A stretch of DNA of 64,000 nt, from the NCBI RefSeq assembly GCF_055900595.2, contig NZ_CM148325.1; one strand, given 5' to 3'. Made by a program: the position numbers and the translations under genes. Positions 13,762-15,189 of this stretch are shown here, piece after piece. The notes under the pieces were generated by a model. The model was not told where the DNA came from. It made no database searches and worked only from the letters and a program-made list of their open reading frames with translations. Position 1 is the first letter of the stretch, and every line of letters begins with the position of its first letter.

Positions 13762-15189
13762 ATGAGCGATAAAAAGAAGCGCAGTATGGCGGGTTTGCCG
13801 TGGATCGCGGCGATGGCCTTCTTCATGCAGGCACTTGATGCCACTATTCTGAATACCGCCTTACCCGCAATCGCTCATAGCCTTAATCGTTCTCCTCTCG
13901 CGATGCAATCAGCCATCATCAGTTACACGCTGACGGTGGCGATGCTTATTCCGGTAAGCGGATGGCTAGCCGATCGCTTCGGTACGCGTCGCATATTTAC
14001 CCTTGCCGTGAGTCTGTTCACATTGGGTTCTCTGGCCTGCGCACTTTCTAACTCGCTACCACAGCTGGTTGTCTTCCGGGTTATTCAGGGGATAGGTGGC
14101 GCAATGATGATGCCTGTTGCTCGGCTGGCCTTACTGCGTGCTTATCCTCGTAATGAGCTTCTTCCTGTATTGAATTTTGTCGCCATGCCGGGTCTGGTGG
14201 GGCCAATTTTAGGCCCCGTACTTGGCGGCGTGCTGGTCACCTGGGCAACCTGGCACTGGATATTTTTAATCAATATCCCCATAGGTATTGCCGGCCTTCT
14301 TTACGCGCGCAAACATATGCCCAATTTCACCACCGCACGACGCAGATTCGATATCACTGGCTTTTTGCTGTTTGGCCTCAGCCTTGTTCTCTTCTCAAGC
14401 GGAATAGAGCTCTTCGGTGAAAAGATTGTCGCCAGTTGGATTGCCTTGACGGTAATTGTCACCAGCATCGGGTTACTGCTTCTCTATATTCTCCATGCAC
14501 GACGCACGCTAAACCCATTAATTTCATTAGATTTATTTAAAACCCGCACTTTCTCGATCGGTATAGTAGGCAATATTGCAACCCGTCTGGGGACCGGCTG
14601 TGTACCGTTCCTTATGCCATTGATGTTACAGGTAGGATTTGGTTATCAGGCGTTTATTGCCGGCTGTATGATGGCACCGACAGCGTTAGGTTCCATTATT
14701 GCAAAATCGATGGTTACCCAAGTCTTACGTCGTCTGGGCTATCGCCATACGTTAGTGGGGATCACGGTAATTATTGGGCTAATGATCGCTCAGTTCTCTT
14801 TGCAATCACCAGCAATGGCGATATGGATGCTGATCTTGCCGTTGTTTATATTAGGGATGGCTATGTCGACGCAATTTACCGCGATGAATACCATCACACT
14901 TGCCGATCTGACCGATGACAACGCCAGCAGCGGTAACAGTGTTCTGGCGGTCACGCAGCAACTGTCTATCAGTTTAGGCGTTGCTGTAAGTGCGGCCGTC
15001 CTTCGCGTTTATGAAGGGATGGAAGGCACAACGACTGTCGAACAATTCCACTATACGTTTATCACAATGGGCATTATTACTGTTGCTTCAGCAGCAATGT
15101 TCATGCTTCTGAAAACAACCGATGGTAATAATTTGATCAAAAGACAGCGTAAATCTAAGCCGAACCGCGTTCCATCAGAATCGGAGTAA
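13762..15189 (+). CDS. hsrA: Major facilitator superfamily efflux transporter (475 aa)
   Basis: Highly hydrophobic, roughly 14 predicted transmembrane segments, MFS motif-A-like [11 protein letters not shown]; synteny (yieO). Confidence 0.82.

Follow-up and report, generated by a model that had tools for sequence, protein, structure and literature searches.

The convergent hsrA/rbsR junction of Escherichia coli and its relatives: an inherited 35-bp overlap in which both reading frames appear to be constrained

Two unrelated convergent genes, hsrA and rbsR, share the last 35 bp of their coding sequences in a 64,000-nucleotide stretch of DNA (NCBI RefSeq assembly GCF_055900595.2, contig NZ_CM148325.1; hereafter, the window), and this overlap is inherited and not a chance open reading frame (ORF), because 34 of 80 other loci share the 35 bp and another five of the 80 carry a 53-bp derivative of it. 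It is very probably a genuine, long-annotated dual-coding overlap of 3' ends that arose through a frame change and later came under selection in both frames, with the read-through transcripts being handled by Rho and RNase III. In what follows, we describe the two genes, the state of the junction in related species, the variation of the two frames within the overlap, and published transcript data from the K-12 strain, and weigh the alternative explanations against this evidence.

The Overlapping Genes and Their Annotation

The coordinates of the pair and of the surrounding features are collected in Table 1. The segment common to both genes is CTAAGCCGAACCGCGTTCCATCAGAATCGGAGTAA. Read on the plus strand, the 3' end of hsrA is ...AAG CCG AAC CGC GTT CCA TCA GAA TCG GAG TAA, whereas rbsR, read as the reverse complement down to 15155, ends with ...ATG GAA CGC GGT TCG GCT TAG. 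The hsrA product is a DHA2-type MFS transporter, encoded by the second gene of the yieP-hsrA unit. The rbsR product is the LacI-family ribose repressor, and its gene is the last of the rbs cluster, for which the annotation of the segments covered here includes rbsC, rbsB, rbsK and rbsR; the whole operon is known as rbsDACBKR. An operon of yieP and hsrA is found in nearly all genomes examined in an earlier study (PMC11340327).

Table 1. Features at and around the hsrA/rbsR junction (window positions)
Feature	Position	Strand	Description	Source
hsrA (yieO) CDS	13762..15189	+	475 aa; stop TAA at 15187-15189	ORF list; K-12 b3754
rbsR CDS	15155..16147	-	330 aa; stop TAG is the reverse complement of 15155-15157	ORF list; K-12 b3753
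Tail-to-tail coding overlap of hsrA and rbsR	15155..15189	both	35 bp	ORFs and sequence
Last 10 HsrA codons	15157..15186	+	antisense to rbsR codons 320-329	
TAA out of frame for hsrA	15156..15158	+	site of the hsrA stop in relatives with a 4-bp TTAA/CTAA junction	
yieP	13047..13739	+	GntR/FadR-type regulator, upstream of hsrA in the yieP-hsrA unit	
Double-stranded RNA site	15154..15177		positions of the two 22-mers, 15154-15175 and 15156-15177; 2-nt overhangs	PMC7373196 Table S3
Equivalent of the K-12 Rho region peak	15451	+ (hsrA sense)	262 nt past the hsrA stop	PMC7815308 suppl. 2
Terminator-like site	16053-16074	+	in the 5' part of rbsR, about 865 nt downstream of the hsrA stop	consensus scan
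rbsK	16151-17107		ORF start GTG at 17107; annotated CDS start at 17080	
Sigma-70-like promoter matches	12748-12894	-	two strong matches, 11/12 and 10/12	
16S rRNA gene	11025-12566			

The overlap had been proposed, at this length and under these gene names, in a sequence-only reading of the window, and it proved to be exact by the ORF list, the sequence, and the K-12 and RefSeq annotations. The names are right as well, given the K-12 equivalents and the match of RbsR to the NCBIfam equivalog NF007743 (697 bits, above the cut-off, positions 1-330 of 330). Since the latter model is matched to its last residue, the RbsR C-terminus is the end of the family. HsrA passes the NCBIfam subfamily model NF007799 ('MdtD') only narrowly, with 457 bits against a cut-off of 426, and the coverage is limited to residues 13-465. 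By this comparison, the last 10 HsrA residues are a lineage-specific C-terminal extension past the family profile, which ends at 465 of 475, and the position of the tail outside the profile made a comparison with relatives worthwhile. It should be noted that PGAP/RefSeq names the gene 'mdtD, multidrug transporter subunit MdtD' in all sampled E. coli genomes in which it lies under the match, and K-12 curation gives its equivalent as hsrA, a putative transporter. The true mdtD is a paralogue elsewhere; the automatic name is therefore misleading.

In K-12, rbsR occupies 3938227..3939219 and hsrA 3939185..3940612, with an identical 35-bp overlap at 3939185..3939219; a 6-kb K-12 segment aligns to window positions 18374..12374 without gaps and with 97.9% identity. 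The window segment 14700-15700 is 100% identical to E. coli strain Z0117EC0005, whose RefSeq record annotates both coding sequences with the same ends as in the window. Of 5,426 complete E. coli genomes, 5,415 match this 1 kb around the junction at 95% identity or more. Both coding sequences lie under the 1-kb match in 11 of 12 sampled rows, the twelfth being a short match of 10% coverage to a different gene pair, and a 96-bp junction query recovered both in all 15 sampled rows. Thus, the overlap is already present in the reference annotation and is already known. Its length is ordinary, in that the chance of meeting no stop in the 10 codons after a bypassed one is about 62% for a random sequence, (61/64)^10.

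Variation of the Junction and Origin of the Long Overlap

When genomes were scanned with HsrA, 80 species-level loci were obtained in Enterobacteriaceae, and both reading frames were followed to their stops in each of them. The gene hsrA converges on rbsR in all 80 loci, representing more than 20 genera, and the junction varies between a gap of 3 nt and an overlap of 53 bp. No intergenic spacer was found between the two genes in any of these loci, the largest gap being the 3 nt found at a single locus; gaps of 2 nt occur at nine loci (Kluyvera, Phytobacter and Atlantibacter). Overlaps of 4 bp, in which the two stop codons are interlocked as TTAA, CTAA or CTAG, account for 24 loci, 9-bp overlaps for six (Kosakonia) and a 24-bp overlap for one. 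The 35-bp overlap is present at 34 loci of Escherichia, Salmonella, Citrobacter, Intestinirhabdus, Enterobacter and Leclercia. The remaining five loci, of Lelliottia and Huaxiibacter (L031, L032, L035, L036 and L043), have lost the rbsR TAG as well: it is changed to TCG, and RbsR is six residues longer (…GSVSAGGDL), so that the overlap grows to 53 bp and the stops of both genes have moved.

One further observation concerns the labelling of a locus, L033 (CACSKA010000004.1). Although titled 'Chryseobacterium sp. 18061', it holds an enterobacterial hsrA/rbsR pair with 95% identity over 5.5 kb to the locus of 'Citrobacter sp. 18056' (L027), and the assembly is probably mislabelled or contaminated.

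In an alignment on the rbsR stop, the distance between the conserved codons for ...NLIKERHK and that stop is shorter by one nucleotide (modulo 3) in the 35-bp class than in the 4-bp class. The respective junctions are cac aaa caT TAA in the 4-bp class and cac aaa tCT AAA CCG in the 35-bp class. We infer that the short junction is the ancestral state, because it is found across many more genera, the direction being read from this distribution and not from a rooted species tree. The ancestral junction would have been free of a spacer, with a 4-bp stop shared by hsrA and rbsR (TTAA), which is the commonest state in Enterobacteriaceae. In the long-overlap lineages, the 3' end of hsrA ahead of the rbsR stop would then have become shorter by one nucleotide (modulo 3); such a frame change would put the old TAA out of frame and hence make the translated part 31 nt longer, running antisense to rbsR up to the next TAA. 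A neighbour-joining tree built on hsrA and rbsR DNA places the long-overlap taxa in two groups, not in one split, with the deep nodes unresolved. Convergent overlaps are known to arise by movement of stop codons, for example, by a frameshift or a 3' extension (PMC4161906; PMC2478687).

Selection on the Two Reading Frames

In the overlap, hsrA codon positions 1, 2 and 3 lie opposite rbsR positions 1, 3 and 2. With the third position of rbsR facing the second position of hsrA, any synonymous change in rbsR alters HsrA. We measured constraint as third-position entropy in 11-codon windows within rbsR; it should be noted that these windows share a tree and that the measure, taken here on 11 codons, is informal and not a codon model. 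For the 34 loci of the 35-bp class, the entropy at rbsR wobble positions is 0.587 over the last 11 codons, compared to a gene mean of 1.03, and this value is in the lowest 0.6% of windows. Conversely, in the 37 loci with a 4-bp overlap, a 9-bp overlap or no overlap, the last 11 rbsR codons have an entropy of 1.25 against a mean of 1.13, which is the 67th percentile. The last rbsR window ranks first of 319 in the Escherichia/Salmonella/Citrobacter clade, and 22nd of 319 in the Enterobacter/Leclercia clade (11th of 319 when Lelliottia is added).

On the side of HsrA, the tail pattern K-P-x-x-x-P-S-x-x-E is kept across 35 loci. Opposite the hsrA stop, the leucine codon of rbsR is either CTT or CTC at each of the 35 loci, so that the hsrA TAA or TGA is preserved. 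Taken together, both frames appear to be under purifying selection in the overlap. The evidence for this is good, though informal: low synonymous variation in rbsR is confined to the long-overlap lineages, and the overlap-free relatives serve as an internal control. The reduced variation could instead reflect a constraint at the RNA level and not on the HsrA peptide.

The sequence-only reading had named a mis-called stop, such as an earlier true stop in hsrA, as the finding that would undo the overlap. An annotation or sequencing artefact of this kind, in which the coding overlap would not be real, has two points in its favor, namely, the position of the last 10 HsrA residues outside the family profile and the finding that 3'-extension artefacts account for many of the long convergent overlaps (Pallejà 2008; PMC2478687). 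However, neither stop is mis-called: hsrA contains no in-frame stop before 15187, the frame and the stop recur in 34 species-level assemblies that are independent of one another, and thousands of E. coli genomes share a conserved junction region. A mis-called hsrA stop is dismissed because both frames appear to be under purifying selection, as seen in the rbsR synonymous sites facing the HsrA tail, constrained in long-overlap lineages only, and in the invariable choice of CTT or CTC opposite the hsrA stop. We regard the artefact as scarcely credible.

Transcription through the Junction

The sequence-only reading had also stated that the overlap leaves no room for terminators, and this is borne out, since the genes have no intergenic space and no terminator-like hairpin was found near the junction on either strand. 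Scans of 12600-16200 for promoters and intrinsic terminators returned nothing at the junction, and the consensus scan of the minus strand over the same interval detected no intrinsic terminator. The sole plus-strand site of this kind past the hsrA stop is the one listed in Table 1, a perfect 8-bp palindromic hairpin, ATCGCTTC-ACTGAC-GAAGCGAT, followed by a T-rich run in the hsrA sense. Folding of the region around the junction, with 180-200 nt taken for each strand, gave no terminator hairpin (z-scores -1.46 and -2.00). There are no inverted repeats in 15100-15240, and 14950-15400 contains only two small pairs, both off the overlap. With spacer and intrinsic terminator absent, each transcript must end within the opposite gene.

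Strand-specific transcript coverage across the overlap was the check that the sequence-only reading had suggested, and published K-12 data in effect provide it: transcripts do extend across the overlap, and a part of them forms duplexes that are cleaved. These data come from K-12 grown without ribose, which is 97.9% identical to the window strain in this region. A region of Rho-dependent termination lies at K-12 3938923(-), antisense to rbsR (Rho score 2.78, p 7.6e-6; Adams 2021; PMC7815308 suppl. 2); its position is coarse, as it was derived from 800-nt windows. In the hsrA-sense RNA, C exceeds G between 100 and 240 nt and again between 280 and 420 nt downstream of the hsrA stop, and the Rho region comes after such a stretch; with respect to Rho loading, this profile is suggestive only. 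The primary Term-seq 3' ends tabulated in the same study include none for hsrA or rbsR (PMC7815308). The p19 capture of RNase III products yielded a 22-bp duplex, AUGGAACGCGGUUCGGCUUAGA / UAAGCCGAACCGCGUUCCAUCA, annotated as 'hsrA rbsR' (Huang 2020; PMC7373196 Table S3), with 158 and 232 reads, or 1.9 and 2.7 RPM, which is near the 1-RPM reporting floor (PMC7373196). Both 22-mers occur exactly in the window (Table 1). Finally, rbsR-hsrA is among the 165 convergent excludons detected by ExcludonFinder in at least half of 58 MG1655 transcriptomes (PMC12288877). According to these data, the hsrA-sense transcript is halted by Rho a few hundred nucleotides into antisense rbsR, and some of the sense and antisense RNA pairs, the duplex then being cut by RNase III within the overlap.

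A different way of ending the two transcripts would be a collision of converging polymerases, each being stopped by the other where a hairpin in the overlap induces pausing, so that sharp 3' ends are left on both strands. This mechanism has been described for hundreds of convergent E. coli pairs (bioRxiv 10.1101/2022.10.23.513370), and hsrA/rbsR, a convergent pair that lacks an intrinsic terminator, is a formal candidate for it. However, the overlap encodes no hairpin, the region 15100-15240 is free of inverted repeats, as noted above, and Term-seq lists a primary 3' end for neither gene (PMC7815308). Furthermore, read-through in the hsrA sense rises with bicyclomycin, so that termination there is Rho-dependent (PMC7815308), and the model performs poorly for weakly expressed pairs (bioRxiv 10.1101/2022.10.23.513370). 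Termination driven by collision is very improbable in this case.

It is likewise conceivable that the spacer-free junction has been kept by selection since it couples the two units, with yieP-hsrA being repressed by ribose-induced rbsR read-through and vice versa, by means of polymerase collision and RNase III cleavage of the duplex. The constancy of the arrangement would fit such coupling (the genes lie within -3 to +53 nt of each other in 80 of 80 loci from many genera), as would the membership of the pair in the MG1655 excludome (PMC12288877) and the RNase III duplex in the overlap (PMC7373196). On the other hand, the published data that we found contain no anticorrelated expression; the duplex is scarce, and the p19 reads from convergent overlaps as a class are outnumbered about 38-fold by those from divergent overlaps (PMC7373196); hsrA-sense RNA is stopped by Rho within a few hundred nucleotides (PMC7815308); and tight convergent packing is common, there being 75 convergent overlapping pairs in E. 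coli (Huvet & Stumpf 2014; PMC4161906). We consider selection for such coupling unlikely. In a broader version, the absence of a spacer would be selected and would wire rbs read-through to repression of YieP-HsrA efflux and the reverse (by collision and RNase III), and the overprinted tail of HsrA would have become functional in its own right, as hinted at by its K-P-x-x-x-P-S-x-x-E pattern and by the constraint on rbsR synonymous sites; we consider this version quite unlikely. A functional excludon at this junction would tie an uncharacterised efflux pump to sugar catabolism, but nothing yet points there.

The sequence-only reading had further suggested that convergent transcription could cause mutual interference here. 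None of the published datasets that we found has expression of hsrA or rbsR changing because of the other gene. Given the distal position of both genes in their units and the rarity of the duplex, the effect on expression is probably small.

Several observations on the neighbouring features were also made. Within rbsR, a sense-strand Term-seq 3' end at K-12 3938325 (window 16049) lies 98 nt into the gene, and a strong Rho region is located at K-12 3938387 (window 15987; Rho score 3.8, p 1.4e-13) (PMC7815308). This combination suggests premature termination inside rbsR in LB. The rbsK ORF and the annotated rbsK CDS differ in their starts (Table 1), and the 3' end of the RbsZ sRNA (K-12 3937278) corresponds to window position 17096, just upstream of the annotated rbsK start. 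Rfam gave no match for the RbsZ family at the gathering threshold in this start region. On the other side of the pair, the 16S rRNA gene is preceded by the two promoter matches of Table 1, which presumably correspond to rrnC P1 and P2. Transcripts in the rbsR sense, if they were not terminated, would proceed antisense to hsrA and then to yieP and reach these promoters.

Comparison with Known Systems

Overlapping bidirectional terminators (Ju 2019; bioRxiv 10.1101/2022.10.23.513370) resemble the present case in that they involve a convergent pair without a canonical intrinsic terminator. The likeness does not extend further: hsrA/rbsR has no shared hairpin in the overlap, no sharp 3' ends have been reported for it, and independence of Rho is contradicted by the bicyclomycin-sensitive region in the hsrA sense. 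Convergent excludons (PMC12288877) are closer, since hsrA and rbsR are opposite-strand neighbours with 3'-overlapping transcripts, are listed by name as such a pair, and have documented RNase III cleavage; it should be noted that mutually exclusive expression is the defining trait of the class, and that the features which hsrA/rbsR shares with it are the overlapping transcripts and the cleavage by RNase III.

The closest likeness is to conserved convergent overlapping gene pairs. The origin proposed here, with a stop moved through a frame change, is of the kind described for them (PMC2478687; PMC4161906). Both hsrA and rbsR are real genes with homologues and correct stops, the overlap is conserved (34 loci with 35 bp and five with 53 bp), and selection on both frames is indicated by the entropy comparison. 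As in the conserved prokaryotic cases, the overlap exceeds 15 nt, is of the 3'-3' type, joins two well-characterised genes and recurs in many genomes; nothing of substance is different, and hsrA/rbsR is one of the roughly 75 pairs of this type in E. coli. Among conserved convergent overlaps, the phase with position 2 facing position 3 was reportedly found to be over-represented by Rogozin et al. in 2002, and this is the phase of hsrA/rbsR, in which position 2 of one gene faces the wobble position of the other. The fresh elements are the reconstruction of how the frame changed at a TTAA junction with shared stops and the evidence, controlled by lineage, that both frames are constrained. Their value is modest, as a worked example of a convergent overlap that arises and then becomes constrained, with relatives lacking the overlap as the internal control. 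The hsrA/rbsR overlap itself is neither unusual nor new and is an ordinary member of this known class.
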